From the NCBI GenBank assembly GCA_963749235.1, contig CAVVLV010000001.1:410989-474988 (forward strand): a stretch of DNA of 64,000 nucleotides. The letters are read 5' to 3'. The stretch's first letter is position 1. Each line of letters starts with the position of its first letter. This DNA is from an uncultured Thermoplasmata archaeon (GTDB taxonomy: Archaea; Thermoplasmatota; Thermoplasmata; Lutacidiplasmatales; UBA184). The notes under the pieces were generated by a model. That model worked only from the letters and a program-made list of their open reading frames with translations. It had not been told where the DNA came from and made no database searches. Shown in pieces: positions 1-38,842 of this stretch. Both the position numbers and the translations under genes were made by a program.

Positions 1-1
1 T

Positions 2-2188: not shown

Positions 2189-2245
2189 GAGGCCCGGCCG
2201 GGATTTTCTAAATGGGAGGATTTCGATACAATTATTGTCGTCGAA

Positions 2246-3862
2246 TTGAGTTACCTTGGGTTAGCAAAATCCGTTTTCACTCAGGGTTCTATCGTCTTGA
2301 AAGTGTATCCGCCGCCAAGGCGGATCATGAAGCCTCGGGTTAACCCAATCGGCCGCGCCATTATTTCGGTCGCGATTGCTGTGCTCTTTTTCGGTGGGCT
2401 GATGTACGCGACGGGCGACGCGATTGCGGGATCCGATGGGGGTTGCTACTGCCCCAATTGCGGCAGCTGCGGTCTGTGTCCCACAAACTACAACTTGTAC
2501 CCGGTTGCGGCGGCGGCATCAAATGAGACCAATGCGTCCATTACGTTCTATCTAAGCTCCTCGAGTGGGGAGCCCAACGGCGTCGCCAACGTCAACTTCG
2601 GTCTCAACACTTCTTACCTGTGGCCGGCTGCAACAACTGTCGGAGTAGGAGGGATGTTGTATCCAACGACAGTTTCTGTCGGATATCTTGCCCCGAACCT
2701 GACGTACGACTACAAGGTGAGCGCCTCAGCGAGCTGCACGGACACCAATGGCCACCACAACTATGCAGGGTCGACCATCGGGACCTGGACCGACAAGGCA
2801 AACACCATGGGCGCGGTGTCCGGCTACTTCACGAACACAACTGGTTCTCCGGCCCCTGTCGGATCGGTTGTGACACTCTACTGCTATTCTTCTAGCGGCG
2901 TCGCCATCGACAACAACTATGGATGGACGACAACGGCCGGGTATTACTCGCTCTACTTGCCTAGCTTTGCGGTAAATCGGTGCACCGGGGGTCTCGCATT
3001 GAACTTCTTCACGCAGAACAACAAGAACGGAAACAACTGGAACGGAAATTTCAATGTCACTTTCCTCGTTTACACGTACGGTGACTACAACATCGTCGTA
3101 CCGCAAATCTACGTCAGTCCGTACTACCCGATCGGGGTGGGACCCAGTAATGTGATGCAAACAAACGGTGCGGCTGGAAGTTACATCACGTATACTCAGG
3201 GGACGACGTTGACGACCAGCTCCACAACCTGCTGGCAGCTCTTCTGGCTGTTTACTGGGTGCGTTGCCTCCGCGACAAGCGCCGGAGCGAGCAAGAGTTA
3301 CTCAGCAGAAAACGAGAGCTTGAATGTGGACCAGCGCTTCTTAACCACGGGCACAATGGGCTTTGTTGCAATGACTAGAGCGACCAACATCTCTGTGGAT
3401 CGCTACGCGACTTTCGGGAATCCGCTTTCCCCTGGACCAGCCCCGATTCCCACCTTCATGACTCCTCAGAATTTTACGGAGTTCCACCTCTACTATGTGT
3501 CGGGCTGGGGTACAGGAGGACAGGGCCAGTTCATCCAGTACAAGTACCCTATTGGCGGCTCGGTCACGACGAGCACTGTCACTGAAACCGTGGGCGTGCA
3601 GTCGGTTGACTTCTCTATCGGTGTTGACATCTACGACGTAGATATTTCGACATCCGTGGCGGACGTAACATGGTCCCAAACTGCTACCGAGACCCAATCC
3701 AACACGCTCTCGTGGGAGGCGTTCGCGAATGGGTCGAACGGGGAATGCTTCGTGGTTTACGGGGAGGGGGGTTCTCAGTCATCTAACACCGCTGACGCCA
3801 TCGGGCTGTGGGCCTACACGCCGAACGGCGGGCCGGCAGGGTCAAATTGTCCTGACCCCTAG
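2246..3862 (+). CDS. Secreted/membrane-anchored hypothetical glycoprotein (N-terminal signal-anchor, Cys-rich CYCPNCGSCGLCP motif, carboxypeptidase-regulatory-like beta-sandwich segment)
   Basis: Hydrophobic N-terminus IISVAIAVLFFGGLMYA; many N-x-S/T sequons; AT-rich TATA-like region just upstream (2189-2245); no recognisable catalytic motifs. Confidence 0.55.
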   Translation: MSYLGLAKSVFTQGSIVLKVYPPPRRIMKPRVNPIGRAIISVAIAVLFFGGLMYATGDAIAGSDGGCYCPNCGSCGLCPTNYNLYPVAAAASNETNASITFYLSSSSGEPNGVANVNFGLNTSYLWPAATTVGVGGMLYPTTVSVGYLAPNLTYDYKVSASASCTDTNGHHNYAGSTIGTWTDKANTMGAVSGYFTNTTGSPAPVGSVVTLYCYSSSGVAIDNNYGWTTTAGYYSLYLPSFAVNRCTGGLALNFFTQNNKNGNNWNGNFNVTFLVYTYGDYNIVVPQIYVSPYYPIGVGPSNVMQTNGAAGSYITYTQGTTLTTSSTTCWQLFWLFTGCVASATSAGASKSYSAENESLNVDQRFLTTGTMGFVAMTRATNISVDRYATFGNPLSPGPAPIPTFMTPQNFTEFHLYYVSGWGTGGQGQFIQYKYPIGGSVTTSTVTETVGVQSVDFSIGVDIYDVDISTSVADVTWSQTATETQSNTLSWEAFANGSNGECFVVYGEGGSQSSNTADAIGLWAYTPNGGPAGSNCPDP

Positions 3863-3888
3863 AACTCCGGGGGCGTGACGCCCGGGGC

Positions 3889-5205
3889 GTGCCGATGGGT
3901 AGCGGAGAACCAAACCAGCCGAGACGGCGAGCCGCGTTCGCAGGCTTGGTGGTCGGGATTGTCGTTGCAAGTGGAGTCTTCGCAGGATGGGCGGTCACCC
4001 GACCGAACGCCACAGCCAGCCCTCCAGTGATTGACGACGGGCCTACGCTGTATGGCGCCCTACGCGCCATCAATGAGTCCGTACGCAATCAACTAGGTGG
4101 CCCTTGGACGCTGTACGGGGTTTGGGGAATCGCTACTCCACTACCGTTCAGCCCGACATCGATTCCTTGGCCTCGGATCAACGAGAGTGTCAACTCCTGC
4201 AGCGCTGAGTTTCCCGGAGTTACCCTTTGGAACTCCACGATCCCACTGTTTAACGGGACTTTCAACTCCGGGACGGCCCCGTTTTGGCAGTTCGTCTTCT
4301 TCTCCAACGCAAGCCATAGCATCGAGGTAGCAACCGATGTCCTCGGGACCGCTCACGTCTACGCACCCATGCCGTACAACAGCACGTGCGCGGAGTCGAC
4401 CTGGCTTTCTACCGCGTCTCCCTGGAACTGGGCTCTAATGTTGACCAGCTTTCCAGTCGATTCCTCGGTTGCCGCCAAGACGGCGTGGGCCGCAGGCGGA
4501 TCGGAGTGGACGTCGAACAATCCGGGAGGGTACGTGACGTATTACTACGGATTCGCCTACTGGGGCTCGGGCAACCTTATCGGGAACACCGTCAAGTATT
4601 CGCGATGTGGGATCGTCGGTTTCGCCGCCGTTCAACCCGTTCAGATGTTCATTACGAACCCGGGCGGGTCTCTAATTCAGAACTTCAACGGAACTCAAGG
4701 GTGCGGGAATGTGTACCGCCTGGACCCCACGATTTACGCTCCCTACGTGGTCGATTTTTCGATACCGAAAAGTTCCGGCGCAGACGCCTCGACCTGGGTA
4801 AACATGACCCTTGGTTTGACCTCCCCTCCGCTCGACAACACTTTTCCAGCCACGTACGACGCGGGCGGCTTGGTCACATGGATGGTCGCGCTTAACCTCA
4901 CCAACGCCGGTAGTTCTGCGCTGGGGACGGGGGCTCCGGGATGCTCACAATGGGTTTCGAATCTCAGTTCGTGCTCGGGGAACGCCACGGGTTGGTTTGC
5001 GGTTCTTACTTCCGCGAGCGGGGAGTGGCTCGACAGCTTCGGCACTACCTTGCACGGCTCGGCCTGGGTGATCCCTAACGCCGCATTCGTCTCTCAACAA
5101 CACATCACCATCGTTATCCCGAGTTCGTGGAACGTAACCGGAGACTCTCTGAGCATTTCGAGCACCACACAAAACGTCACGGCCAGCGGCTCCGCGAATC
5201 TGTAA
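3889..5205 (+). CDS. Secreted hypothetical glycoprotein with N-terminal signal-anchor
   Basis: N-terminal TM LVVGIVVASGVFAGWAV; dense N-x-S/T sequons; same orientation and compositional style as the upstream surface protein. Confidence 0.55.
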   Translation: MPMGSGEPNQPRRRAAFAGLVVGIVVASGVFAGWAVTRPNATASPPVIDDGPTLYGALRAINESVRNQLGGPWTLYGVWGIATPLPFSPTSIPWPRINESVNSCSAEFPGVTLWNSTIPLFNGTFNSGTAPFWQFVFFSNASHSIEVATDVLGTAHVYAPMPYNSTCAESTWLSTASPWNWALMLTSFPVDSSVAAKTAWAAGGSEWTSNNPGGYVTYYYGFAYWGSGNLIGNTVKYSRCGIVGFAAVQPVQMFITNPGGSLIQNFNGTQGCGNVYRLDPTIYAPYVVDFSIPKSSGADASTWVNMTLGLTSPPLDNTFPATYDAGGLVTWMVALNLTNAGSSALGTGAPGCSQWVSNLSSCSGNATGWFAVLTSASGEWLDSFGTTLHGSAWVIPNAAFVSQQHITIVIPSSWNVTGDSLSISSTTQNVTASGSANL

Positions 5206-5328
5206 GTGCCAGACCCGCCCGTGGTCGGGGCCTTCCCCGCTCGCTCCGCTCGCGGGTCCGCCCCGCGCCGGGATTGTTATCACGGTGAACGGATTTCACG
5301 GCTGACGCGGAAATCGACGCATGACGTC

Positions 5329-5336
5329 CTTTGACC
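5329..5336. repeat. 8-bp target-site duplication (CTTTGACC), left copy, of the IS66-family element
   Basis: Identical octamer at 6990-6997 immediately outside both terminal inverted repeats. Confidence 0.8.
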
Positions 5337-6989
5337 GTAACTGTTCACGCGGTTGAGCGCGCCCTCGAAGGCTGACCGCTCAGGATCCGGGTCAGTGCGC
5401 TCGTGATGACCTGCAGGAACTCCTGCCCCTTCCGCTTCGTCGTCTCGTGCACGCTCTTGAGACGAGCGTAGGTCCGGGCGCCTACCGCGCTCCGCATCCC
5501 GCCGCTCATCTTCCGCTTCACGCAGATCGAGCGGATGGCTCGCTCCCCGGCGTTGTTGTGCCATGGGATCCGAGCATCCCGCACGAACTCGAAGAGGTGC
5601 GACATCCGCTTCACCAGGTTCCGCGAGATCCGCGCCACATCCTCGTCCTTCGAACTCGGGTCGCACCAGCGACGGATCCGGCGTTCGTAGGCGCGGGCCT
5701 TCTTCTCCCTCGCGTGGAGCGCTGAGGCCGGGGTCTTCTCGGACCACTCCACCGCCGAGCGCACCAGCGCTCTCAGTCGATGAGCGAATCGAAGGAAGGT
5801 GGTCGGTGGGTGCCCGCGCCGCTCGTAATGCGGTGGCGATAGGTCGCGCGGACCTCGAGGGCGGATGCCATGCGCGACCTCCACCGCCTGGAGATGACGG
5901 TTGATGTGGATCCAGCAGACCCCTCGCTTCCCGTTGAGGCAGTTGTAGGCGCACCAGTCGTCGGAGACCACCGTGCCGGGGAAGTCCCGACCCAGCACCC
6001 GTTCCACGACATCCTGCCCCCGACTCGGGTCGAGCTCGTAGTAGGCGGCGAGCTCCGAGGCGAACGACCAGGCCCACCAGTTCGCGCCCCCCACTCGGAG
6101 CGAGGTCTCGTCGGGTTGCACGAGGTGCGCCGAGCGCACCTCCTCGCGGATCGCCGCGTACTCCGGCCCCAGCTGCTCCGCGGTGAACTCCAACAGCCCC
6201 TGGATCTCCCCGACACTCACCGAGAGGCCGGCCATCGTGAGGAACACCTCCTGGATGCGGCGCACGGGGAGCCCCATCATCGACAGGAGGACCACCATGC
6301 TCGCGAGGCGCGGGCCGAACTGGCGGCCCGGGAGCGCCTGGTCGGTCGTTCCCTGCACGTAGCGATGGCACCGTCGGCACCAGTAGCGGTGGACGAGGAT
6401 CCTCAGGACGAACAGGTAGGCCGGGACCAACTCGGTGACAAACCGCTCGTAGGAGTCCGATGGGTCGTCGAGCTTCTTCCCACACTCCGGACAGCGGTCG
6501 AGCGTCAGGTCTAGGGTCTCGTCCACATGGTCGGGTCGCGGACGGACGTGAGGAGCGTGGCCGGGTTGACCCCCCGGATGCCGGCCCTTGGGACGAGGCT
6601 CGGCGGGAGCGGGCATCGAGGGTCGGTCGACCTGCTTGGAGGGAGGGGTGGCGACCTTCAGCGAGGCGAGATGACGCTTGAGCCGATCCAGCTCACGTTC
6701 TCGCTCTCCGAGCTCCCGCTCCCGTTCTTCGAGCTTCCGACGGAGCTCGCGGTTCTCACGGCGGAACTCATCGCGTTCGGCCTCGAGCCGCTCGAGGCGC
6801 CGGAGGATCTCTTGGCGTTGCTTCTGGTCGAGGGTGATCGGTCCTTCGTCCTCGGGAGCGAGAAGGAGGCGGGGGTCCCGAGCGGCCATGAGGTCCTCGG
6901 GCGACCGGTGAACGGCTCGCTAGATTTCAGTACTTTCTATGAACGCGCACGCGCGCGCGTTCGGCCTGCTCAATTCGGTGAACTGATAC
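5337..6989 (-). mobile_element. IS66-family insertion sequence, single-ORF (ISBst12-like) type, 1653 bp, intact
   Basis: Imperfect ~27-bp terminal inverted repeats beginning GTAA (left GTAACTGTTCACGCGGTTGAGCGCGC; right reverse-complement GTATCAGTTCACCGAATTGAGCAGGC); flanked by perfect 8-bp direct repeats; 8-bp TSD and GTAA termini are IS66 hallmarks. Confidence 0.8.
5345..6889 (-). CDS. IS66-family transposase (514 aa) with N-terminal leucine-zipper/coiled coil and CxxC zinc-finger
   Basis: Coiled-coil ERLEAERDEFRRENRELRRKLEE; CPECGKKL...CRRCHRY zinc finger; conserved IS66 TnpC blocks (DETslrV, WAwsF, DdWcaY, HnNaaERaiR). Confidence 0.85.
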   Translation of the reverse strand: MAARDPRLLLAPEDEGPITLDQKQRQEILRRLERLEAERDEFRRENRELRRKLEERERELGERERELDRLKRHLASLKVATPPSKQVDRPSMPAPAEPRPKGRHPGGQPGHAPHVRPRPDHVDETLDLTLDRCPECGKKLDDPSDSYERFVTELVPAYLFVLRILVHRYWCRRCHRYVQGTTDQALPGRQFGPRLASMVVLLSMMGLPVRRIQEVFLTMAGLSVSVGEIQGLLEFTAEQLGPEYAAIREEVRSAHLVQPDETSLRVGGANWWAWSFASELAAYYELDPSRGQDVVERVLGRDFPGTVVSDDWCAYNCLNGKRGVCWIHINRHLQAVEVAHGIRPRGPRDLSPPHYERRGHPPTTFLRFAHRLRALVRSAVEWSEKTPASALHAREKKARAYERRIRRWCDPSSKDEDVARISRNLVKRMSHLFEFVRDARIPWHNNAGERAIRSICVKRKMSGGMRSAVGARTYARLKSVHETTKRKGQEFLQVITSALTRILSGQPSRARSTA

Positions 6990-6997
6990 CTTTGACC
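6990..6997. repeat. 8-bp target-site duplication (CTTTGACC), right copy
   Basis: Matches 5329-5336 exactly. Confidence 0.8.
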
Positions 6998-7029
6998 TAT
7001 CCTCGGTCTCATCACTGCACTATCGCAAC

Positions 7030-7521
7030 ATGAATCGGCCAGCGCGCTGGGCTGGCGTCGGATTTTTCCTGTTCTTCGCCATCCTCATCGCTTGGCAGCT
7101 CGCAGTCCACGGCTTCGAACCGATCCTTCTGGCCCTTGTCGCCGGGGACGCGTTCCTGGTTTGGTTCGTGATGTACTACACTGCTCCCGGCCCGGTCGAA
7201 CTACGGCAGGCCGAGTCGGGTTTCGAGTTTGTCTACGCGGGGGGCCGGGCACGCCAAGTCGCGATTAAGGGGGCCCAGCTACACTTCAAGCTGGTCGAGC
7301 GCGTCTTGAAACCGAACCCTGGTCGATTTGAGAAGGCCATCGACGACGCTCGCTACTTCGCGGTGGTGGGAGTCGACCGAATTGCCCTAACCCCGGAAGC
7401 GTTCGAATTCCTTGCTGGAAGCATCCTGCGTGCAGGCTACGCTACGCGGACCCGAATCAAGCCGAACCCCCCAGTGGGTTTTTGGCACATCCAGGAGTTC
7501 GATCGCGCGAAATCCAGCTGA
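7030..7521 (+). CDS. Small membrane protein: two N-terminal TM helices + cytoplasmic beta-rich (bacterial-PH-like) domain
   Basis: Hydrophobic segments VGFFLFFAILIAWQLAV and ILLALVAGDAFLVWFVMYY; no enzymatic motifs; the family call is inference. Confidence 0.45.
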   Translation: MNRPARWAGVGFFLFFAILIAWQLAVHGFEPILLALVAGDAFLVWFVMYYTAPGPVELRQAESGFEFVYAGGRARQVAIKGAQLHFKLVERVLKPNPGRFEKAIDDARYFAVVGVDRIALTPEAFEFLAGSILRAGYATRTRIKPNPPVGFWHIQEFDRAKSS

Positions 7522-7572
7522 GTTTTGCTCCGCCTCTGGATCAGACTTCCCAATCTTTCACCACCCCCTTTC

Positions 7573-10500
7573 CTAATCATCTGGGACAGCCGTGTCAGCT
7601 GGGCCAGGGGCCCCATTCTCTCTCGGCGAACTGCTGGCCCGACCTTCTGTCCCACCTTGGCTCTCCGGTTGGGCGGATTTGGGGTGGGACGGGCCCATTG
7701 GGACAGCTGCGTCAGAGATTGGTCCAGCAGGTCGCAAGTCGTAGACTCGAAACCGTGTTCCCTCAAGCCGGCTCCGTCTTCGGTCTAGTCCAAGGGACCG
7801 CAATGCAGTGCCTACCTGCTGCTCGGAGTACGTTCCACGCTCGGAGGCCCTCAGGAGCGCGAGAACCTCTTGGGGGGTGGATTCGGCTCTTCCCGCGACC
7901 AGAAGGGCGCTCACGACCTCCCGAACCTGGCTGACTAGGGGGTCGGTCTCAACCACCGGCAACGGGGGCCGGTCCGCCACCTCCGCCTCGACAGCCCCAG
8001 ACCCGCTCAGGAACGGCCAGACCTGTATCCCAGGAGTGGCGAACGGCCGGAACGCCGCCCTCCCCTCCTTCCACACCAGCCCGACCCCGTCGGCCCACAG
8101 AGAGAGGCCCGGGAACCCATCCTCGACCAACGCCAGGGTCCTCGGCACCGCGGAGCGGTCCGGCAGGACGATCAGGACCCGGTGGCCAGCCGCGCGGGCT
8201 TTCTTCACGTTCCGGATGACCTGCCCCGCCGCCTTGGCCACGGTCGAACACTCGACTTCGACATTGTAGGTCGCCGAGCCCCACTGGAACTGGCCGTCGG
8301 GGGTCAGGATGCCCGCGACCTGCTTCGGGACGCTGAGAGCTATCCCGCGCTTCTCCAGGAAGACTGCGAACTCGGTGAGCGTCTCAATGTGCTCCTCCCC
8401 CTCGTTCCGACGGCCCTCCAGGGCCGCCAGATGGACCTGTCCCCGCGAAGTGAGGCGGAGTCGCCCGGCGTCTTCGTTGGGCTCCACATCGCCTTCGGAA
8501 GCGGCCAGCGCGAGCGCACCGTCCAGCTGGGCCCCAGGGAGCATGGTCGAGTCCTCCAGCTCCTCCCGGGTCCTCGGGCCCGTGGAGAGGCCCGCCATCA
8601 CGCCTTGGACCACCTCGGGCCCGACGAGCCACGGGGAGGCCTCTGAGTCCTCCCGCTGGGCGTATCTTCGGGAACTCTCGGTCACGGTCCGGTGGTTCTC
8701 GGTCGCCAAGGGACCCAGAGGCGGGCTGGGGTCGGTCGTGAGCTTCACGAGGCCCCCTGACACGGCCAGGGCGACCTCGTGCGGCCGGAGGCCGTCCACT
8801 AGGTCCTGGGGGGTCCAGCCGTGGGTCTGCCCGTTGACGATCTTCCACGCGTCGTCCATGTCCTCGACGCCCAGCGAGAACAACAACCACGCGTCCACGT
8901 TGCCGAGCAGGGCGGCCCGGACCCGGGGCGGGACGCGGTGGAGGAACTGCGTCGCGACCACGACGTGGAGGCCGAACTTCGCTCCCTCGCTCAGCATGTC
9001 GGCCAGCGCGGGGATGGCGTAGTTGTGCACCTCGTCGAGGACGAGGTAAACCGAGTGGTCGGGCCGTCCGGACCGCTGGACCGCCGCCCACAGCTGGCTC
9101 AGGTAGACCGCGCCGAGGAAGTTCGCTCCTTCGGCTCCCAGAGCCGATTTGGAGAGGTTCAGGAGCAGCAGGCGGTGCCTCAGCAGGCGGTCGAAGGAGA
9201 CCGCCCCGCTCCGCTGGCAGAGCGCGACCCGCAACAGGGGGTTGGTCGCGATCTTGCCGACCTTGTCGAGCGACGACATCGTGAACTGGTAGTCCAGCCG
9301 CGGCAGGTGCCGCTCGAGGAAGTCGCGGAGAGGCCCGGGAGGGGCGGTCCGGATGAATCTCTGGAGCGCGGGCTTGGACGAGAGCAGGTGGTACGCGTCG
9401 ACCAGATTCGAACCCGGTGTCTGTGACAACCCTTGGACCAAGGCGCGGAGGACCAGTTCGGCCCTCCCGCCGATGCTCTCCTCGCCCCACGCGCTCCGGA
9501 TCGCGGCGAGGAGGTCGCCCGCGAGCGCCTCGGCCCAGCGGTCACGTTCTGTATCGCTTTCTTCGTCGTCGACCGGGTCCGGCTGTCGGAGCAGGTTGAG
9601 GGGAACCGAGACCATGGTTGTGCCATCTTCTTGGAAGGTGGCGTGGGCCGGGTCGATCTCGATTGTCTCCGAGGCAATCTCTGGAGAGAGGCGCGACTCG
9701 ATCCCCCCTACGAGCGTCCCCGTGGGCTCGACCACGACTACGGTCGCATCGGGTTGCTTCGCGAGGATCTGGAGAACCAGATTCAGAGCCAGGGTGGACT
9801 TTCCCGACTGGGTCCGCCCCAGTAGGGCCGCGTGATTCCACTCCGGGGGGAGTGCCACGTGACGACCGTCATAGGCCCCGAGGATGAACTGCGGACGGGG
9901 ACTGGGCTCGGGATCAGGGTGGTACCGCAAGACCCGAACCGTCGGCAACTGGGGGGCGACCGGGGAGCGGGAAACCAGGCTCTCCCTACCCGCCCTTCCC
10001 CGCGGAGCTCCTGCGTACGAGCACTCCGGGTGGTACGTGGCCCACGGGATCGAGAGAAGGTGTCCGAGTTCGGTCGCGGAGACATCGCGGCGCCCGCGCC
10101 GGTTCGAGAACCGCGCGAAGTCGTGGGTCGCGAAGGCCGCGTGGAAGGGTTGCTCCTTCTTGCGCGGAATGACCTTCCACGTCCGCCAGGGGACGCCGCC
10201 GAGGGTGGTCCACTGTTCGAGCCATGCCCCGAGCGCGATCAGCGACTGGTCCGGTTGCGGGCCCATCAAGTGGGCGCGCAGCTCGACGTGGTAGGCTGGT
10301 TCGGCCCGACGGGCGTCCATCTCGGCCCGCAAGGCGCGGCCGTGCCGCTCCGCGTAGCTCATATAACGGGCCGAGAAGAGACCCGACTCCCAGACCCGGG
10401 CCCGCTGGAACAGGAGCTGAAGGACCACGTCGTGGTCCTGGAGCGTCTGAGAGCCGAGGGTCCGAAGGAGGAAACCTGCCGCGTCCGCATCTTGAGGTAT

Positions 10501-10821
10501 GCGAAGTGGCAAGTGGTGATGCCGTTGCACCGCGACCGCCCGTGCGAAGATCCCGCGGGTGGTGAGGTCGGCGAGCGGGCACGCGATCGGCGACCCCGCC
10601 GCGACGCGATGGCGCGTGTTCTCGAGATAGATCAACATCGATTCGAGGTCGGTCGCCTGGGGAGACCCGAGCGCGTATCGGACCCGCCCCGCCGGCTCTC
10701 GGTGGATCTCGAGCCAGAACGGGGCGAGCGAGGTCCAGACCAGCGGTGGCATCTCGGGCGGCTCCTCGGTCGGCGTGGGCAGCAGCAGTTCGCGGTGGAC
10801 ATTTTCAGTGGTGGCGTCCAT
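7573..10821 (-). CDS. Large (1082 aa) FtsK/HerA-superfamily P-loop ATPase with N-terminal unknown domain, central wHTH, PD-(D/E)xK-like nuclease-like domain and C-terminal wHTH
   Basis: Walker A GRTQSGKST; Walker B VYLVLDEVHN; FtsK-like LHVVVATQ motif; segment ILTPDGQF...YNVEVECSTVAK resembles restriction-endonuclease-fold core; helix-turn-helix-like segments near residues ~740 and ~1000. Confidence 0.7.
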   Translation of the reverse strand: MDATTENVHRELLLPTPTEEPPEMPPLVWTSLAPFWLEIHREPAGRVRYALGSPQATDLESMLIYLENTRHRVAAGSPIACPLADLTTRGIFARAVAVQRHHHLPLRIPQDADAAGFLLRTLGSQTLQDHDVVLQLLFQRARVWESGLFSARYMSYAERHGRALRAEMDARRAEPAYHVELRAHLMGPQPDQSLIALGAWLEQWTTLGGVPWRTWKVIPRKKEQPFHAAFATHDFARFSNRRGRRDVSATELGHLLSIPWATYHPECSYAGAPRGRAGRESLVSRSPVAPQLPTVRVLRYHPDPEPSPRPQFILGAYDGRHVALPPEWNHAALLGRTQSGKSTLALNLVLQILAKQPDATVVVVEPTGTLVGGIESRLSPEIASETIEIDPAHATFQEDGTTMVSVPLNLLRQPDPVDDEESDTERDRWAEALAGDLLAAIRSAWGEESIGGRAELVLRALVQGLSQTPGSNLVDAYHLLSSKPALQRFIRTAPPGPLRDFLERHLPRLDYQFTMSSLDKVGKIATNPLLRVALCQRSGAVSFDRLLRHRLLLLNLSKSALGAEGANFLGAVYLSQLWAAVQRSGRPDHSVYLVLDEVHNYAIPALADMLSEGAKFGLHVVVATQFLHRVPPRVRAALLGNVDAWLLFSLGVEDMDDAWKIVNGQTHGWTPQDLVDGLRPHEVALAVSGGLVKLTTDPSPPLGPLATENHRTVTESSRRYAQREDSEASPWLVGPEVVQGVMAGLSTGPRTREELEDSTMLPGAQLDGALALAASEGDVEPNEDAGRLRLTSRGQVHLAALEGRRNEGEEHIETLTEFAVFLEKRGIALSVPKQVAGILTPDGQFQWGSATYNVEVECSTVAKAAGQVIRNVKKARAAGHRVLIVLPDRSAVPRTLALVEDGFPGLSLWADGVGLVWKEGRAAFRPFATPGIQVWPFLSGSGAVEAEVADRPPLPVVETDPLVSQVREVVSALLVAGRAESTPQEVLALLRASERGTYSEQQVGTALRSLGLDRRRSRLEGTRFRVYDLRPAGPISDAAVPMGPSHPKSAQPESQGGTEGRASSSPRENGAPGPADTAVPDD

Positions 10822-10945
10822 GCTCTCGAGGAGGGAGGGTCGAGGGTGATACGGCCGCCGGCGTTCGCGGAAGATGAACGGAGCCGCCTTTCACAATTCA
10901 CTGGCCAACTTCGCTACTTAGTGTCGAGTCCGCTCGCTGACCGCG

Positions 10946-11215
10946 GTGGCGGCCGAGATGGCGCAGGGAGGCATCCACGTTTCCTCCAAGGCATCGTCCG
11001 AAGCACAGTCCTCGCGGCCGCCATCTCATTTCCCGCGGTTCGGTGGAGCGGACCTGATGGTTTCGCTCCGAGAGCTGAAGGCGATGGTCCAAGGGCTGGA
11101 CGCGTCGAACCCTGTTCGGATCCTCGTCCTGGGCGAGCCCGACGAGATCCCACGTTCCGAGTATGCAGCCAAGGTGCCTGGGTGGTACCGCCTTATCGTG
11201 ACCCCGGCGGATTGA
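10946..11215 (+). CDS. Small hypothetical protein (89 aa) between ATPase and integrase, opposite strand
   Basis: Only non-overlapping ORF in the 370-bp gap; no recognisable motif; could be non-coding. Confidence 0.25.
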   Translation: MAAEMAQGGIHVSSKASSEAQSSRPPSHFPRFGGADLMVSLRELKAMVQGLDASNPVRILVLGEPDEIPRSEYAAKVPGWYRLIVTPAD

Positions 11216-12527
11216 GCACGACCTGGTGCCCATTCACGGTCGTGACAACCGTCCACCCCTCATCGAGGTACCGGGGCAGTTCCGTACCTTCCACGAGGCG
11301 TTGGCGTGTCCCGTTCGCATCGGCGTTCTGTCCCATCTTCTTGGTCACGAGTTCCTGGAACGCGCCCACGTCCAAGCTGTCGAAATCCAGCTTGGCGAGC
11401 TCCTTCTCGGTGTATCCCAAGCCCATCAGCATCACCTTGGCCATCTTGGATTGCGCGTCCTGATCGGTGCGCGAAGGGACCGTGGAAAGGAACGGCTCGC
11501 AGCGCCGGTAGGCCGCCCGCATCTCCTCGACCATTGTCGGCTGAAGTTTCTTCGATAGATTGTACCGGCCGCTCACGCCCAGGTCATGCCCGAGGATCGC
11601 CTCGCGGAAGTCCCGCGGGATACGCCCCTTCGCCTCCGCGAGGAGCAGTTGCGTGGAGGCGTAGCTCCGGAGCACGTAGGGCCTCCAGCTGGTGTCGCTC
11701 GGCACCACCTTGTTGATGGCCGTCCGCAGTTCGGCGGTGAGCGCTTTGACCGTCACGAACCCGTTCTCGGTCTGCGTGTCGCGAACTGCGACAAGAGGGG
11801 ATTGTCCCGAGAGAGCTTCCGGGTCCACGGTCGCGCCGCTCCTCCACCGGGGCCGAGTGCGTCGCTCCTTCAGGTAGGCGATGAGGGTCTGAGCAAGCTC
11901 CTCGGAACCGAAGGTCACGTAGGCACGGCGGTTCTTGCTCAGCGCCCCCGGAACCCGGATCAAGAAGGGCAGGGTTCGGAATTCGAGGGTTCGTACGTCC
12001 AGTTCCGGCAGGTCGCCCAGCCGGAGGGCGGTATCGCCGGACCGGTAGACGGAGAACGCGCCCGGCCGAAGTCCCGAGTGAGCCATGAGCAGCGCGGATA
12101 CCTGGCCCCGCAGCGGAAGGGCGCGGAGCAGCCGCCCGAGTTCGTCCTGCGTCGGAACCCGCTCGTTCTCGATCGAGACGCCGCGGATCACGGCGAGTCG
12201 GGGGAAACCGTGGAAATCGACCTCGTGATGTCGGAGGAAGCTGGACACCCCGACGAAGGTCTTCGCGATGTACGTCGTGAGGCGTCCCCGCTTCTGAAGG
12301 TCGCCTGCATACACCACCCATCGCTTCCGAAGGCGGGAGGGATCCGAGCGGGCCTCGGCCAGCAGTTCCGAAGGGCCAAGACCGACCTCATGGAGGCAGA
12401 GGCCCAACTGTCGCAGGTTGACGTCCGCCGTCCTGACGGAACGGAGCTGATTCTCATCGAACCAGCTTCGGATCAGGGGGTCTTCCCGCAGTTTCTGGTG
12501 ATTGAGCCGCGGGGGTTTTCGGGGCAT
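11193..12527 (-). CDS. Tyrosine recombinase / phage-type integrase (444 aa) with ~100-aa C-terminal extension
   Basis: Conserved catalytic region ...VLRSYASTQL...ILGHDLGVSGRYNLS (R, H-x-x-R, Y); located immediately downstream of a tRNA 3' end. Confidence 0.8.
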   Translation of the reverse strand: MPRKPPRLNHQKLREDPLIRSWFDENQLRSVRTADVNLRQLGLCLHEVGLGPSELLAEARSDPSRLRKRWVVYAGDLQKRGRLTTYIAKTFVGVSSFLRHHEVDFHGFPRLAVIRGVSIENERVPTQDELGRLLRALPLRGQVSALLMAHSGLRPGAFSVYRSGDTALRLGDLPELDVRTLEFRTLPFLIRVPGALSKNRRAYVTFGSEELAQTLIAYLKERRTRPRWRSGATVDPEALSGQSPLVAVRDTQTENGFVTVKALTAELRTAINKVVPSDTSWRPYVLRSYASTQLLLAEAKGRIPRDFREAILGHDLGVSGRYNLSKKLQPTMVEEMRAAYRRCEPFLSTVPSRTDQDAQSKMAKVMLMGLGYTEKELAKLDFDSLDVGAFQELVTKKMGQNADANGTRQRLVEGTELPRYLDEGWTVVTTVNGHQVVLNPPGSR

Positions 12528-12581: not shown

Positions 12582-12688
12582 CGCCCGTGCTGGGATTCGA
12601 ACCCAGGTCTGAGGCTCCGCAGGCCTCTAGGATAATCCATTGCAGCAGGTCGGGGGAAGACCCCGGCCCGTAGCTACCCCACACGGGC
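12582..12688 (-). tRNA. tRNA-Arg(GCG), intron-containing (107 nt; ~33-nt intron in the D-arm region)
   Basis: Acceptor GCCCGTG/CACGGGC, T-arm CTGGG-TTCGAAT-CCCAG, anticodon arm GAGGC-CTGCGGA-GCCTC, discriminator G; D-stem GGGT...ATCC with A14,G18,G19 separated by a 33-nt insertion. Confidence 0.55.
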
Positions 12689-12730
12689 AATCGGTTGGGA
12701 CGATGTCCCGGCGGCGGCGAGCGGGGTCGG

Positions 12731-12781
12731 CTATAAAAGCCCGGGGACGCGCGCTACGATGGGCGCGCCACACTTTATAGC
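12731..12781. promoter_or_regulatory. Divergent promoter region with two TATA boxes (GCTATAAAAGC and CTTTATAG) between tRNA-Arg and gatD
   Basis: AT-rich palindromic TATA elements at 12732-12739 and 12774-12780, spaced appropriately for the tRNA (minus) and gatD (plus). Confidence 0.45.
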
Positions 12782-12822
12782 GCGCCTCTCTCCCCGATTC
12801 ATCCGGCACCCGGATTCGCTCG

Positions 12823-14139
12823 ATGGGGGACGAAAAGGGGAAGGACCCGTGGCCCGAACTGCGCCTATTGCCGATGGGTCGGCGCATCCAGTTGGAGGAC
12901 GGCCACGGAGGGACCTGGGTTGGCACCGTCGTTCCCAATCATGGGTTTACGGCCGACCGGATCCTTCAACTTAAACTGGCGAACGGCTACAACGTCGGGC
13001 TGCGGATCGGGTCCAGCGCCCGATTCCATGTGCTGCCGGACGTCTCCCGGGATGCGCGCGCCGCGCCCGCAACGCCGGCCGCCCGGCGCGGGCGCGAAGG
13101 GGAGCCGTGGGTCGCGTTGCTGACGACCGGAGGGACGATCGCGTCCCGGGTCGACTACGAAACCGGAGGGGTCCGCCCGGTCAAGGGAGAGGACGAAATC
13201 CTCGCCTTCTATCCGGAGCTCGAACGGTCGGGACCGGTGCGAATCCTCCCCGTGTTCGATCGACTGAGCGAGGATCTCCGGCCCGACGATTGGATCGTGC
13301 TCGGTGAGAAGGTCGTCACCGCGTTTAAGGACGGGGCCGTCGGAGTGGTCATCGCTCACGGGACGGACACGCTCGCGTACACTGCGGCTGCCCTCAGCTT
13401 CCTCTTGGTCGACCTCCCCGGGCCGGTTGCCCTCGTGGGTGCTCAGCGATCTCCCGACCGGCCTTCCTCGGATGGCCCCTCTAACCTCCAGGCCGCGGTC
13501 CAGGTGGCACGGGAAGCGCCGCTCGGTGAGGTGGTCGCCGTGATGCATTCCGGCCTCTCGGATACGAGCTTCGCGATCCATCGGGGCACTTGGGTTCGCA
13601 AGATGCACTCGAGCCGTAGGGATGCGTTCGAGACCCGCAACGGACCCCTGCTCGGGAAGGTCGAAGGAGGCCGCGTCACGGTGGCCGAGTTCGGTCGCCC
13701 CCGGACGCCCGGCCCGGCCCGTTTGGATGGCCCGATCGACCCGCGGGCGGCCCTCCTCTGGTTTTATCCGGGGCTGCATCCGACTTATGCGCAGCTCCTC
13801 GTCCGGGAGTTGCGCGGGATCGTCCTCGCCGGTACCGGTCTCGGCCACGTTGGGGCCGATCACCTCGAGTGGATCCGAGCCGCGACCGCCGCGGGCAAGG
13901 TGGTCGCGATGACGACCCAGTGCCTCGCCGGTCGAGCCGACCCGTACGTGTATGCCACTGGCCGCGAGCTCCACCATGCCGGGGTGGTTTACCTCGACGA
14001 CCTCCTGCCCGAGACGGCGTACACGAAGATGCTCTGGGCGCTCGGCCATTCCGATACTCCGGCCGGGGTCGTGGAGCGATTGAAGACCCCGCGGGCGGGA
14101 GAGTTCCTCGACCGTCACACAGGAGGGCCGCCGACATGA
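12823..14139 (+). CDS. gatD: Glutamyl-tRNA(Gln) amidotransferase subunit D
   Basis: Asparaginase-like TGGTIAS motif, archaeal GatD N-terminal domain; stop overlaps gatE start. Confidence 0.85.
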   Translation: MGDEKGKDPWPELRLLPMGRRIQLEDGHGGTWVGTVVPNHGFTADRILQLKLANGYNVGLRIGSSARFHVLPDVSRDARAAPATPAARRGREGEPWVALLTTGGTIASRVDYETGGVRPVKGEDEILAFYPELERSGPVRILPVFDRLSEDLRPDDWIVLGEKVVTAFKDGAVGVVIAHGTDTLAYTAAALSFLLVDLPGPVALVGAQRSPDRPSSDGPSNLQAAVQVAREAPLGEVVAVMHSGLSDTSFAIHRGTWVRKMHSSRRDAFETRNGPLLGKVEGGRVTVAEFGRPRTPGPARLDGPIDPRAALLWFYPGLHPTYAQLLVRELRGIVLAGTGLGHVGADHLEWIRAATAAGKVVAMTTQCLAGRADPYVYATGRELHHAGVVYLDDLLPETAYTKMLWALGHSDTPAGVVERLKTPRAGEFLDRHTGGPPT

Positions 14140-34494: not shown

Positions 34495-36457
34495 GTGATG
34501 GCGCCCGGTCCCATTCCCGCGCAACCGACGGTCGCGTCCGTGGCCTCCCTGGCCTCCCGGCTCGAGCGGGTGCGCTCGAGCCTGGTCGATCTGGAAGCGG
34601 CGGCCGAGCTCGGTCCGTACGGTTCGCAGCGGGACAGCGCCCGCAACCTCCTGCACTACCTGGCGTTCCGCCGATTCGACCTTCGACGGGACCAGGCCCG
34701 CCTCACCCACTGGGGCCTCTCCTCGCTCGGCCGGTCGGAAGGGCACGTGCTGTACAACCTGGATGCGGTTCTCGGATGGCTCCACTCGCTTCAGGGTGGG
34801 ACTCGCCCGGAACGCCCCGCCCCGACCGGGCCCGACCCCGAGCGGGGGCGCCACCTCCTCGCGAGGAATTCCCAAGCGCTCCTGGGTCCGACCCATCCCG
34901 GTCGAGGCGTGCGCATCATGGTTACGATGCCCGCCGAGGCGGCCACGGACTATGAGCTCGTGCGCGAACTCGTGGAGGTCGGGATGGACTGTGCGCGGAT
35001 CAACTGCGCTCACGAGGGACCCGACGAGTGGGCCCGCATGGTCGCGCACGTCCGTCGGGCGGAGCGTTCCACCGGCCGCCGCTGCCGGATCGAGATGGAC
35101 CTGACGGGTCCCAAGATCCTGTACCGGAGCGATCCGACCGGGACCGGCCGTCCTCAAGGTTCGTCCGACGCGCGATGCGTTCGGGCAGGTGACCGCGCCG
35201 GCGTCGGTGTGGCTAGTCCCGGAGGAGGAGGACGGGACGCTCCACCCCGCTGGACGATCGGTTCCAGTCCCGAACGACTGGCTCGCCCGACGTCGGATCC
35301 CCGAACAAGTCGAGGTGGTCGACCTCCGCGGGGCCCGACGGACGTTGCGGCTTCAGGAGCGGGCCGGCAAGTGCGTCCGCGCCGAGCTCTCTAAGACGGT
35401 CTACCTCGAACGTGGGAACCTCCTTACGGGACTCGCGGCCGACGGACGCGAGGATCGCGCGCGGATCGGACCGATCGAGCCCGTCCCGCAACGCCTCCGC
35501 CTCGAACGCGGTGACACGCTGATCGTGACCGCCCGCCCGGAACCGGGCGAAGCGGCGCGACGGATAGCCGACGGGCGAGTGCTCCGCCCGGCTCACATCG
35601 CCTGCACGCTGCCCGAGGGACTTCGGTCCGTCCGGACCGGCCAGTCGATCTGGTTCGATGACGGGCGGATCGGTGGGGTTGTGCGGTCGGCGACCGAGGG
35701 GCGGCTGCGGGTGGAGGTCACCCATGCCCCTCCCGAAGGGACCTGGCTGGGTGCGGACAAGGGGATCAACCTCCCCGACACCCAGCTCGACCTGCCCGCC
35801 TTGACGGAGAAGGATTTGGAGGACCTTCGGTTCGTCGTGCGACACGCGGACCTGGTCGGTCTCTCGTTCGTCCACACTCCCTCGGACCTTGAGCAATTGC
35901 GAGCCGAGCTCGCCCGGCTCGGGCGCCCACGCATGGGCGTCGTACTCAAGCTGGAAGTTCGACGAGGGTTCGCCGAACTCCCGGGGATCCTCCTCGCGGC
36001 CCTCCGCAGCCCTCCCGTCGGCGTGATGATCGCCCGGGGGGACCTCGCGGTGGAGGTCGGCTTCGAGCGACTCGCCGAGGTCCAGGAGGAGATTCTGTGG
36101 CTCTGCGAGGCCGCTCACATGCCCGCGATCTGGGCCACCCAGGTCTTGGAGGGCTTGACGAAGAGCGGACTGCCGTCCCGGGCGGAGGTGACGGACGCCG
36201 CGATGGGGGAGCGGGCCGAGTGCGTGATGCTGAACAAGGGGCCGCACGTGGTCGCGGCGGTCCGAGCCCTGGACAGCATCTTACGTCGCATGCAGTCGCA
36301 CCAGGCGAAGAAGACCGCGATGCTCCGCCACCTTCAGGTCGTCGAACGGTTCTTTCACGGGCGGCGCGCGGGCACGACCTCCCGGCGTGGCGGACGACTG
36401 GCGCGGGCGGGTCCGTCACGCGGAGGTCGCGCCGCCGATGGGGCTGCCCGAATTTGA
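34495..36457 (+). CDS. pyk: Pyruvate kinase with ~90-aa N-terminal extension, reading frame interrupted once (~35110-35190)
   Basis: RIMVTMP...GMDCARINCAHEG in frame 1; MIARGDLAVE and C-terminal domain in frame 2. Confidence 0.7.
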
Positions 36458-36546
36458 ATCGGGGTCCCGGGCTCCCAAAGCCCGAAGGATGGACCAATAG
36501 AGCAGGGCGAGGTGTGACCCTCGTCCCGTAGCTACCCCACAGCCCC
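36439..36546 (-). tRNA. tRNA-Pro(UGG), intron-containing (108 nt; 33-nt intron at the same D-arm position as tRNA-Arg)
   Basis: Acceptor GGGGCTG/CAGCCCC, T-arm CCCGA-TTCAAAT-TCGGG, anticodon arm CGGGC-TTTGGGA-GCCCG, discriminator A. Confidence 0.5.
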
Positions 36547-36556
36547 GCATCGAAGG

Positions 36557-36985
36557 TCAGACGGCGTCCACCCGTTTCAACGTTCGGCCGATGCGGCACT
36601 CGGCTGGGTTCGGGTCGACCTTCTCGATCCGGTACCGCTGCTTCGCGGGCAGGTTCGGTCCCGCACAGTCCCACCAGTTCGGGCAGTCCAGGCGGCGGCA
36701 CGGGTACCGGCTCACGTCGACCGAGCTCCCGACGACCGCGCTCCGGGCCTCGACCAGGAGCGGTCTGGGGACGACCTTGACCTCCACCACGTGGGCGTCG
36801 GTCTCCTGGAGGGCGCACGGGTGCTTGATCGGACGGACCTTGGTGATCGCGTACCGCCGGCCGGTGTCGAGCGTGAGGCACGCGTGCCGATAGGGACACG
36901 TGCGGCAGACCGGGGCCCCGCCACCGTAGACGAATTCGAACCCTTCGTGCGCCTCGCTAATGCCGATAAGCGTGATTTCCGCCAT
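36557..36985 (-). CDS. UPF0179-family archaeal protein (Cys-rich, ~142 aa)
   Basis: MAEITLIGISEAHEGFEFVYGGG..C..C; conserved Cys pattern. Confidence 0.55.
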   Translation of the reverse strand: MAEITLIGISEAHEGFEFVYGGGAPVCRTCPYRHACLTLDTGRRYAITKVRPIKHPCALQETDAHVVEVKVVPRPLLVEARSAVVGSSVDVSRYPCRRLDCPNWWDCAGPNLPAKQRYRIEKVDPNPAECRIGRTLKRVDAV

Positions 36986-36986
36986 G

Positions 36987-38025
36987 TTATCCGATCACTC
37001 CCGTGACGTTGGCCAGCCGTTCGGCGGCCTCGCGCGTGAGGCCGTTGTCTCCCAAGATCGTGTAGCGGTCCGGGCGCACCGAGTGCGCCATGACGAGCGC
37101 GTGCACGATCTCCTCCGTCCGGACGCCGAGTTCGCGGGCGGTCGTCGGAGCGCCGATCGTGTGGAGCGCGCTCTTCAATCGACGCCAGTCGCCGCCGTGG
37201 AGGTACATCATCATGATCGCGCCGACCCCGCACTGTTCGCCGTGGAGGCTCGGGTGCTCGCTGACCCGGTCGAGCGCGTGGCTGAAGAGGTGCTCGCTGC
37301 CCGAGCAGGGTCGCGAGGATCCCGCCACGCTCATCGCGATCCCGGCGACCAGGATGGGCCGGATCGCGATCCAGACCGACTCCTCCAAGTTCGGTTTGAT
37401 CGAGGCCGCGTGGTCCATGATCTCCTGGGCCGCGTACTCGGAAAGGGTCGCCGCCGTGCTCGAGTACCTCTTCGTTGCGTAGGCGCACCGCGAGTCGCCA
37501 GTCCAAGACCGCGGTCACATTGGAGATGACGTCCGCACACCCAGAGGCGAGCAGCCGGAACGGCGCCTTCACGATGAGTTCGGTGTCCGCGATGACCCCG
37601 ACCGGTACGGCCGCCTGGGTGCTGGTCGCGGTCGCGCTGCCGTGGATCGACGCGCGCGGGGAGGAGATCCCGTCATGCCCGGCCGAGGTAGGAAGGCTCA
37701 CGAACGGGACCCGAAGGCGGTTCGCGACGACCTTCGTGATATCGATCTTGCTGCCGCCCCCGGCGCCGACCAGGAATCGCGCGCCGGCGGCCCGCGCCTC
37801 CCGTTCCACGCGGTCGACCTCCTCTTCCGTAGCGATGTTCGCGATGATGGTGGATGCGTCGAACTTCGATTCCTTCAAGATCTCGGTCGCCCGGTATCCC
37901 GCGAGCTCGGCGGTCTTCGGTCCGGTGATCACGACGCCCCGGTCCGGGAAATCGAACTGACGGCACGTCGAACCCAGGTCTGCGAGCACCCCGTGGCCGA
38001 CGAGCACGACCCGGGGGAACACCAT
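36987..38025 (-). CDS. egsA: Glycerol-1-phosphate dehydrogenase [NAD(P)+], reading frame interrupted once (~37420-37450)
   Basis: N-terminal Rossmann [12 protein letters not shown] and metal-binding C-terminal half [11 protein letters not shown]...HGEQCGVG lie in adjacent frames. Confidence 0.75.
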
Positions 38026-38143
38026 CCCACGGGCCTTGCCGAAGGGGGAGTCGAGGACCGACGGGGTCGAATGCGCGCGGCCGCCCTCTCCTGACATCCT
38101 CGAGCGGGCGGACGGGGGGAAGGCCCTCTTTAGCCTTCCGTGG

Positions 38144-38842
38144 CTATCGGCCGGGGACCTCGCCCCAGAGCACCTTGTGCTCTTGGAGCATGACGCGAAC
38201 ATCCAGGCGGTCAGCGAGGACCCAATCGGCGAGTCGGCCCGCGTCGGTTCCCCATACCGGCTGGAAGACGATCGTGGCCGGACCCGAGTACTTTCGAACG
38301 ACGCGTCTCGCGTACAAGTAGTCCGCTCGATCGCTGACCACGAATTTCATCACGTCCCCCGACCGGAGGAGGGGGAGGTTGGCCCACCGGTTCTTCCCCT
38401 GCATCTTCGAGCTGGGACACTTCACGTCCACGCTCAGGATCACCCGAGGGAGATCCAGGTACGGAGTGACATCGAGCGACCCCCCGGTTTCGATCACGGT
38501 CGTGAGTCCCCGGTGGGAAATCTGGCGGACGAGGTCGACCGACTCCCGTTGGAGCAGCGGCTCCCCTCCGGTGAGGCAGACATACCGGGTGTGGTGCCGG
38601 GACACATCGCGGAGCAGCGACGGGATGGATCGCTCGCGGCCCGGCCCGAACGAGTACGCCGTGTCGCACCAAGCGCACCGGAGATTGCATCGAGCGGTCC
38701 GGATGAAGGTGGTGCGCACTCCGGAGAGGGGGCCCTCTCCCTGCACCGAGTGGAAGACCTCGATAATCCGCACGAAAGTGCACTCTGGTCCGAACCACAT
38801 TAGGCTTCGGGCCCGGAGATTTCGGACCGTCGCGCTTCCCAA
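38144..38842 (-). CDS. queE: 7-carboxy-7-deazaguanine synthase (radical SAM)
   Basis: CNLRCAWCDT cluster; QueE-like length. Confidence 0.75.
   Translation of the reverse strand: MGSATVRNLRARSLMWFGPECTFVRIIEVFHSVQGEGPLSGVRTTFIRTARCNLRCAWCDTAYSFGPGRERSIPSLLRDVSRHHTRYVCLTGGEPLLQRESVDLVRQISHRGLTTVIETGGSLDVTPYLDLPRVILSVDVKCPSSKMQGKNRWANLPLLRSGDVMKFVVSDRADYLYARRVVRKYSGPATIVFQPVWGTDAGRLADWVLADRLDVRVMLQEHKVLWGEVPGR

Follow-up and report, generated by a model that had tools for sequence, protein, structure and literature searches.

Predicted D-loop introns at position 17/17a in the tRNA-Arg(GCG) and tRNA-Pro(UGG) genes of Thermoplasmata archaea

tRNA introns at and away from the canonical site

The canonical introns of Euryarchaeota, such as those of haloarchaeal tRNA-Trp and tRNA-Met, lie at position 37/38 in the anticodon loop, within a strict hBHBh' motif that has both flanking helices. 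The two introns that we describe here, in a tRNA-Arg and a tRNA-Pro gene of an uncultured Thermoplasmata archaeon, share the 3-4-3 geometry and the similar length range of these introns, and presumably depend on the same enzyme family and ligase, but they are placed in the D-loop, are without the outer helix and appear to borrow D-stem bases for their central helix. A D-loop intron is known from Methanopyrus kandleri pre-tRNA-Glu(UUC), where a relaxed HBh' motif likewise has a bulge, a central helix and an inner helix without an outer one (PMC5829648). That intron sits at position 20b/21 rather than 17/17a, and occurs in a single tRNA of one species beside a second, canonical intron, whereas the present ones recur in a pair of tRNAs throughout the MAGs sampled from a whole clade; the enzyme of M. 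kandleri is an (αβ)2 endonuclease. A crenarchaeal D-loop intron is also removed by a protein splicing endonuclease, although the tRNA core makes its removal slower than that of an intron at 37/38. It differs in having a full BHB motif and an (αβ)2 enzyme with a Crenarchaea-specific loop, and is hardly cut by the α'2 enzyme of Archaeoglobus, while the present host is a Thermoplasmata archaeon.

Two further systems offer partial parallels. In the Thermoproteales, with their transposed introns, different isoacceptor tRNAs have introns at the same non-canonical site, as here, but those introns are highly similar in sequence, whereas ours share only their structurally constrained ends, with no recent exchange detectable (PMC4090602). 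ARMAN-2, another uncultured lineage of euryarchaeal affiliation, has relaxed non-canonical introns that hid genes from ordinary tRNA finders; these lie in the T-loop (53/54 and 59/60), and a broad-specificity ε2 endonuclease was identified there (PMC3239211). Among the papers searched, we found no description of the D-loop intron reported below.

Two interrupted tRNA genes and their surroundings

The window, that is the whole 64-kb stretch of DNA analysed, has a G+C content of about 69%, and its host order, the Lutacidiplasmatales (formerly TMEG), is described from acid soils with about 69% GC and about 2.1 Mb, in a paper in which introns go unmentioned (PMC9287336). On the minus strand, ARAGORN identifies, after intron removal, a tRNA-Arg(GCG) gene at 12582..12688 (pre-tRNA body of 107 nt including the discriminator G; anticodon GCG at 12618-12620; CCA not encoded) and a tRNA-Pro(UGG) gene at 36439..36546 (108 nt including the discriminator A; anticodon TGG at 36475-36477). 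Read on the minus strand, tRNA-Arg (12688-12582) is GCCCGTG-TG-GGGT-AGCT[ACGGGCCGGGGTCTTCCCCCGACCTGCTGCAA]TGGATTA-TCCT-A-GAGGC-CTGCGGA-GCCTC-AGAC-CTGGG-TTCGAAT-CCCAG-CACGGGC-G, and tRNA-Pro (36546-36439) is GGGGCTG-TG-GGGT-AGCT[ACGGGACGAGGGTCACACCTCGCCCTGCTCTAT]TGGTCCA-TCCT-T-CGGGC-TTTGGGA-GCCCG-GGAC-CCCGA-TTCAAAT-TCGGG-CAGCCCC-A. The original prediction had singled out a 17-nt block identical in both tRNAs, and TGTGGGGTAGCTACGGG indeed occurs exactly twice in the window (12667-12683 and 36525-36541, both on the minus strand), against 0.02 matches expected from shuffles even with two mismatches. The intron-end pattern CTACGGG-N(8-38)-CCTGCT finds only these two sites, where 0.05 would be expected. 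The acceptor stems described earlier (GCCCGTG/CACGGGC and GGGGCTG/CAGCCCC), the anticodon arms (GCG and TGG) and the T-arms are all present, and they are 100% paired across 109 homologues.

Standard tRNA finders pass over both genes. No tRNA was called in the intact window by ARAGORN or by Rfam at the gathering threshold; with relaxed thresholds Rfam returned a partial tRNA at 12588-12644, the 3' part of tRNA-Arg (25.9 bits), and no match at the tRNA-Pro site. Once some 31-41 nt of the D region are deleted, ARAGORN calls tRNA-Arg(GCG) and tRNA-Pro(UGG). It had also been held that failure of covariance models to call tRNAs here would count against these genes; unspliced, the DNA is indeed not called as a tRNA, but the cause is the intron, as the closest intron-less genes among the matches listed (67/75 identical to the predicted spliced product for Arg, 71/75 for Pro) reach full-length Rfam tRNA scores of 50.7 and 51.2 bits, respectively. 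The misses on the intact genes are thus no evidence against them. Furthermore, Rfam in 'gathering' mode missed intron-less tRNA-Pro genes (L205:25-99 and L222:67-141) that score 51.2 bits in 'evalue' mode, despite a threshold of 29 and apparently through a speed filter, so that little weight attaches to a gathering-mode scan that finds no tRNA.

Default ARAGORN also makes a characteristic error in related genomes, where at 27 loci among L002-L124 it reports a false 'tRNA-Arg(gcg)', truncated to 69-73 nt and with its start within the intron (for example L004:2756-2824 and L006:1171-1239). The 3' part of the intron, GCCCGCTG, mimics the acceptor strand GCCCGTG. Such calls could enter automated annotations, and tRNA counts and completeness checks of these MAGs can err unless an intron-aware archaeal mode is used. 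The archaeal mode of tRNAscan-SE is intron-aware and was built for such cases, so some records may already carry the intron as an annotation without comment. When we scanned the window for further tRNAs by T-arm and acceptor, requiring G53-C61, the Arg T-arm alone matched; as this rule is blind to the Pro T-arm (A53-U61), the scan excludes further tRNAs of the G53-C61 type only.

The tRNA-Arg gene is divergent from a gene for GatD, a protein specific to Archaea, at 12823-14139 on the plus strand. A promoter-like TTTTATA box lies at 12732..12738 on the minus strand, 44-50 nt upstream of the mature tRNA-Arg 5' end, and CTTTTATAG recurs at roughly equal distance in the orthologous tRNA-Arg upstream regions read, being absent from the stretch read in locus L246. 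The box is likely the archaeal promoter of tRNA-Arg, with a leader of about 20 nt. The intergenic region as a whole (12690-12822) holds two TATA-like boxes in opposite orientations, both of which recur in relatives: CTTTTATAG would serve the tRNA, and CTTTATAG, read on the other strand, gatD. Upstream of tRNA-Pro, on the same strand, a UPF0179-family gene at 36557..36985 (minus strand; Pfam PF03684, E = 1.1e-33) ends 11 nt from the tRNA, and in 53 orthologous loci conserved sequence extends to the stop codon immediately before tRNA-Pro. From this arrangement, tRNA-Pro is probably co-transcribed with the UPF0179 gene or served by a promoter within the 3' end of that gene.

Two features of the neighbourhood are recorded here as observations in their own right. 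The UPF0179 gene (36557-36985) overlaps, in another frame and by 273 nt, the 3' end of a 496-aa Fe-ADH-like reading frame (36712-38202, minus strand) whose domain spans residues 63-214 only; this frame is probably over-extended or affected by an assembly frameshift. The region adjoining the 3' end of tRNA-Arg (1-12527 of the window) looks foreign and variable, with a G+C content of 56-59% at 1-5000 against about 69% elsewhere in the window, and contains, downstream of the tRNA, an IS66-family transposase (5345-6889, minus strand) and a VirD4/TrwB-like ATPase (7573-10821, minus strand). The 1082-aa and 444-aa genes found there also follow the tRNA in L001, but in L002 and L004 different genes take their place. 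An element may have integrated here, at tRNA-Arg; we looked through the window for a second copy of the tRNA 3' end, such as an attachment site would leave, and found none.

Intron boundaries and the splice motif

We located the splice junctions by comparison with intron-less homologues. In tRNA-Arg, the 5' exon at 12672..12688 comprises tRNA positions 1-17 (acceptor 5' strand, U8, G9, GGGU, A14 G15 C16 U17), followed by a 32-nt intron, ACGGGCCGGGGTCTTCCCCCGACCTGCTGCAA (A18..N49; 12640..12671), and a 3' exon at 12582..12639 that begins with U17a G18 G19 A U U A21, all on the minus strand. This 3' exon, which covers the D-stem 3' strand, anticodon arm, T arm, acceptor 3' strand and discriminator, is near-invariant among the Arg rows of our 109-sequence alignment. 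In tRNA-Pro, comparison with intron-less tRNA-Pro genes gives a 5' exon of tRNA positions 1-17 at 36530..36546, a 33-nt intron, ACGGGACGAGGGTCACACCTCGCCCTGCTCTAT (A18..Y50; 36497..36529), and a 3' exon at 36439..36496, again on the minus strand. On sequence comparison, both introns are therefore assigned to the boundary between U17 and U17a of the D-loop.

The intron-less genes were sought in a metagenome collection with the pattern GTGGGGTAGC-N(0-6)-TGGWYYATCCT...YTKSGGA, which matched at least 120 genes. Among the matches listed, 98 are tRNA-Pro(UGG), four are tRNA-Arg(GCG) and two are tRNA-Arg(UCG), the remaining 16/120 having no ARAGORN call and mostly an anticodon-loop intron. In 118/120 of the matches listed, a single nucleotide separates GGGGTAGC from TGG (T in 81, C in 37). 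Removing the intron from our Arg and Pro genes gives GGGGTAGC-T-TGG, the arrangement found in more than 100 intron-less archaeal tRNA-Pro and tRNA-Arg genes; for Arg the intron-less homologues read GGGGTAGC-T-TGGATTATCC, and the intron-less tRNA-Pro(UGG) genes read GGGGTAGC-T-TGGTCCATCC. This ordinary AGC-U-UGG D-loop in intron-less genes identifies A18..N49 and A18..Y50 as the intron. Across species, the nucleotide just 5' of TGG is A, C, G or T in Arg and C or T in Pro amid nearly invariant exons, which indicates that this base is intronic. The predicted 75-nt products fold in ARAGORN as cloverleaves of tRNA-Arg(gcg) and tRNA-Pro(tgg), with D-loops AGCUUGGAUUA and AGCUUGGUCCA and predicted exon junctions GGGGUAGCU|UGGAUUAUCC and GGGGUAGCU|UGGUCCAUCC. 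A search for positional orthology of the intron-less genes, using tblastn of five window proteins (pyruvate kinase domain, Fe-ADH, LeuRS, GatD and ORF444) against the 120 listed metagenome loci, gave no match.

These boundaries retain the core of the original prediction, a D-loop intron at one shared non-canonical site in two real tRNA genes, of a kind found mainly in particular archaeal lineages, while revising its details. An insertion is present at the same D-arm position in both genes, but instead of 33 nt each the introns measure 32 nt in Arg and 33 nt in Pro, and the stretch from the 17-nt block to ATCC, given earlier as 33 nt in both, is 33 nt in Arg and 34 nt in Pro. The block is not exonic throughout, its last five nucleotides (ACGGG) being intronic; nor does the intron run directly up to the ATCC said to close the D-stem, as seven exonic D-loop nucleotides (TGGATTA or TGGTCCA) come after it. 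The extra nucleotide that had seemed to sit at the 25/26 junction disappears in the covariance-model register, in which the A of ATCC is A21 and not part of the stem: A21 is followed by a D-stem of G10.U25, G11-C24, G12-C23 and U13xU22, and then by N26. The Rfam alignment of an intron-less Pro gene has the same register, with GGGU/UCCU as D-stem, A21 before and U26 after, and this register is common to the intron-less homologues.

The same tRNA-Pro(UGG) D-arm occurs without a D-loop intron in another lineage of high GC content (62-69%; metagenome loci such as L152:2478-2553, L159:24-99 and L219:6470-6545). In some copies there, the anticodon loop is interrupted at its canonical site by about 20 nt (...CTTTGGG|ACCCCTCCATGGGGCAGAAG|AGCCTG...), and others are intron-less, so the tRNA-Pro(UGG) family exists in three states, with a D-loop intron, with an anticodon-loop intron or with none.

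We derived the expected cleavage geometry from the 37/38 case and from published descriptions of relaxed motifs (PMC5829648, PMC3239211). Both introns fit a bulge-helix-bulge of 3-4-3 geometry, in relaxed form. The Arg central helix has four base pairs (G12-C47, U13.G46, A14-U45, G15-C44), its H' strand C44-C47 (12645-12642) pairing with G15-G12; it is paired in all 58 Arg sequences, in which U13 faces either G or A at position 46. In Pro, where the architecture is otherwise that of Arg, G12.U48, A14-U46 and G15-C45 make 3/4 positions pair, and the U13xC47 mismatch has its counterpart in all 51 Pro genes. The 5' bulge of three nucleotides, C16 U17|A18 (12673-12671 in Arg), is closed on both sides, and the 3' bulge, A48 A49|U50 (12641-12639 in Arg; generally A48 N49|U50), is open on its exon side. 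The junction AGCU|UGG obtained from homology falls after the second nucleotide of each bulge, and the bulges are exactly 4 bp apart.

The inner helix h' of Arg consists of C19-G43, G20.U42, G21-C41 and G22-C40, continuing into a CGGGG/CCCCG hairpin. The pairs C19-G43, G20-Y42 and G21-C41 are formed in 99-100% of sequences, though TACGG and YGCTNNANTGG were fixed in the search pattern that supplied the bulk of the sequences compared, so that invariance there is partly by construction. The next inner-helix pairs (alignment columns 22:44, 23:43 and 24:42) vary among GC, AU, CG, UA and GU, and locus L247, reached by GatD synteny alone and lying beyond the search pattern, has a compensatory A20-U42 where others have G20-C/U42. 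In the alignment of 109 distinct pre-tRNAs, 93.2% of cells are paired under the proposed structure, compared with 78.5% for shuffles (0/500 reach the observed value) and 39-50% for slid partners. We also looked for the outer helix h of a strict hBHBh' motif, but G11/G10 face G51/G52 and pairing is impossible, which makes the motif a relaxed HBh'/BHL rather than a strict hBHBh'. In a constrained fold of Arg, a mini-hairpin of three pairs (G51 G52 A53 with U57 C58 C59; in tRNA numbering, G18 G19 A20 with U22 C23 C24) could abut the 3' bulge, and on this model it could substitute for the outer helix in Arg; in Pro only two such pairs are possible. The BHB conformer of Arg is computed at -49.9 kcal/mol, against a minimum of -53.1 kcal/mol for the optimum, which keeps an extended D-stem.

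Taken together, we consider both loci to be functional tRNA genes, each carrying a protein-spliced archaeal intron of 31-36 nt at U17/U17a with a relaxed BHB motif, at a probability of roughly 0.85. Transcription of tRNA-Arg would proceed from the TTTTATA box. In the pre-tRNA, exon residues G12-G15 would leave the D-stem and D-loop and bind CUGC (Arg) or CUCU (Pro) at the 3' end of the intron, giving the 4-bp central helix of the bulge-helix-bulge, with C16 U17 A18 as the 5' bulge, a GC-rich hairpin from C19-G43 onwards as the inner helix, and A(48) N(49) U(50) as the 3' splice-site bulge without a closing outer helix. A tRNA-splicing endonuclease would cut at U17|A18 and N49|U50, and an RtcB-type ligase would join the exons, steps that, like the enzymes themselves, we infer from the sequence. 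The product would regain the ordinary D-loop, AGCUUGGAUUA or AGCUUGGUCCA, leaving G18 and G19 presumably free for T-loop contacts. Counting against this reading are the missing outer helix, the conserved UxC mismatch of Pro, a BHB conformer that is not the minimum-energy fold, the poor cutting of such substrates by known α'2 endonucleases, and a search of the window and comparison loci that found no endonuclease gene (both taken up below).

Two other readings of the same structure were weighed. The splice register could be shifted by one base pair, with U13-C16 pairing with G43-G46 and cuts after A18 and A48; the intron would then measure 30/31 nt and the mature D-loop, AGCUAAUGGAUUA, 13 nt. 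The helix can in fact slip, as C16 and C19 are each able to pair with G43, and because none of these bases varies, covariation does not tell the registers apart. The shift would, however, put a nucleotide that takes all four bases into exons that hardly vary elsewhere, make the D-loop two nucleotides longer than in 118/120 of the intron-less homologues listed, cost one stacked pair and open the inner helix with a G.U pair; on D-loop length and the variable nucleotide we rejected it, and regard it as improbable. Alternatively, the insertions could be retained, the loci being pseudogenes or tRNAs with an extra D-loop hairpin, which would agree with the failure of Rfam and ARAGORN to call the intact loci. 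This seems to us the least credible reading, to be given very little weight, since the exons are near-invariant in more than 100 species-level genomes while the hairpins vary freely yet keep pairing, the signature of selection on a spliced product and on a splicing structure. Moreover, the insert ends exactly where 3-4-3 cleavage would cut, and its removal gives back a standard D-loop. In established tRNA structure G18 and G19 contact the T-loop, which they could not do with a 32-nt hairpin retained next to them, after U17.

Distribution, origin and the splicing enzyme

The intron of tRNA-Arg is present upstream of gatD in 9/9 relatives reached by GatD synteny (L001-L005, GatD 89-69% identical; L245-L248, 67-63%), a sample unbiased as to intron sequence. 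A scan for the intron signature over one genome per species (GTDB representatives) found at least 119 stretches, and the matches listed, among them UBA184 and Candidatus Lutacidiplasma silvani, are all Thermoplasmata-type MAGs except for one chance match. They resolve into 69 tRNA-Arg(GCG) and 53 tRNA-Pro(UGG) genes, with no other tRNA type among them. The intron is kept in both tRNAs across more than 100 species-level Thermoplasmata MAGs, with nearly invariant exons and hypervariable hairpins, and measures 31-35 nt in Arg (61 species) and 32-36 nt in Pro. Among the matches listed, 26 genomes, counting that of the window, show both interrupted genes, and on the 2.3-Mb contig CAWEHV010000002.1 these are about 24 kb apart, as in the window. 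The sole non-archaeal match listed (L055:5103-5145, Nibrella viscosa) is without tRNA features around it, in agreement with the roughly ten chance matches estimated by hand for this pattern in that collection. Viral contigs searched for the signature yielded none.

How the two introns are related is less clear. They have in common their insertion point, a length class of 31-36 nt, first nucleotides ACGG and the last eight nucleotides, with a shared 3' end of the form YGCU-N-Y-A-N (...YGCUNNAN). These features, together with a common hairpin architecture, a D-arm 5' half that is identical between the two genes and the likeness of the hairpins in the window (CGGGG/CCCCG in Arg, CGAGG/CCUCG in Pro), would suit paralogy, in which an ancestral D-loop intron was copied from one gene to the other by transposition or gene conversion via the identical D-arm. 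For the most part, however, the shared ends are what the bulge geometry and pairing with AGC, identical in the two exons, demand, and independent insertion at a favoured site, or convergence at an identical D-arm, is possible. The original prediction had gone further in suggesting paralogous intron spread, which the cores do not bear out: their similarity within a genome (0.059) is no higher than between genomes (0.087; permutation p = 0.90, 26 genomes), leaving no testable trace of a transfer.

Recent gene conversion between the two introns finds no support in the 26 genomes carrying both, and judging from these sequences there appears to be no ongoing exchange between them. Typical hairpins in the sampled genomes are GGGG/CCCC in Arg and GAGG/CCUC in Pro, distinct types which suggest that each intron has evolved orthologously since before the radiation. 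As no excess of within-genome core similarity is seen, any transfer would be ancient and any common origin would predate the radiation of the order. One early spread from gene to gene would be plausible; for paralogy overall we would give slightly less than even odds.

Excision of these introns raises the question of the enzyme. Relaxed motifs are handled efficiently by (αβ)2 and ε2 endonucleases only (PMC5829648, PMC3239211), and reviews hold that Euryarchaeota with α4 or α'2 endonucleases have strict BHB introns at 37/38 only (PMC4090602). The Thermoplasma acidophilum enzyme is an α'2 of narrow specificity (PMC6379350); that of Archaeoglobus fulgidus, also α'2, hardly cuts even a strict BHB in the D-loop unless given the crenarchaeal lysine loop (PMC3241643), and relaxed or D-loop substrates are poorly cut by the α'2 endonucleases of both genera (PMC3241643, PMC5829648, PMC6379350). 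We searched for a homologue with phmmer, using M. jannaschii EndA (validated against PDB 1a79) as the query, and found none among the 9,475 reading frames (minimum length 80 aa) of the window and all comparison loci; a catalytic-motif regular expression over the same sequences also found nothing. Since the characterised Thermoplasma α'2 enzyme is narrow, the host enzyme would be either an α'2 that has gained broad specificity or one of another architecture. Our suggestion that it is an α'2 broadened independently, for instance by a new lysine-bearing loop, or an architecture not yet described in Thermoplasmatota, is tentative, and we think it less likely than not.

The introns themselves are of a known archaeal type, and what sets them apart is their position at 17/17a, their conservation in both tRNAs throughout the Thermoplasmata MAGs sampled, and the unexpected host lineage. 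A relaxed D-loop intron kept by an abundant order of soil and peat provides a natural test of endonuclease specificity against intron position and, if the suggestion about the enzyme is true, would represent an independent case of intron-enzyme co-evolution inside Euryarchaeota.
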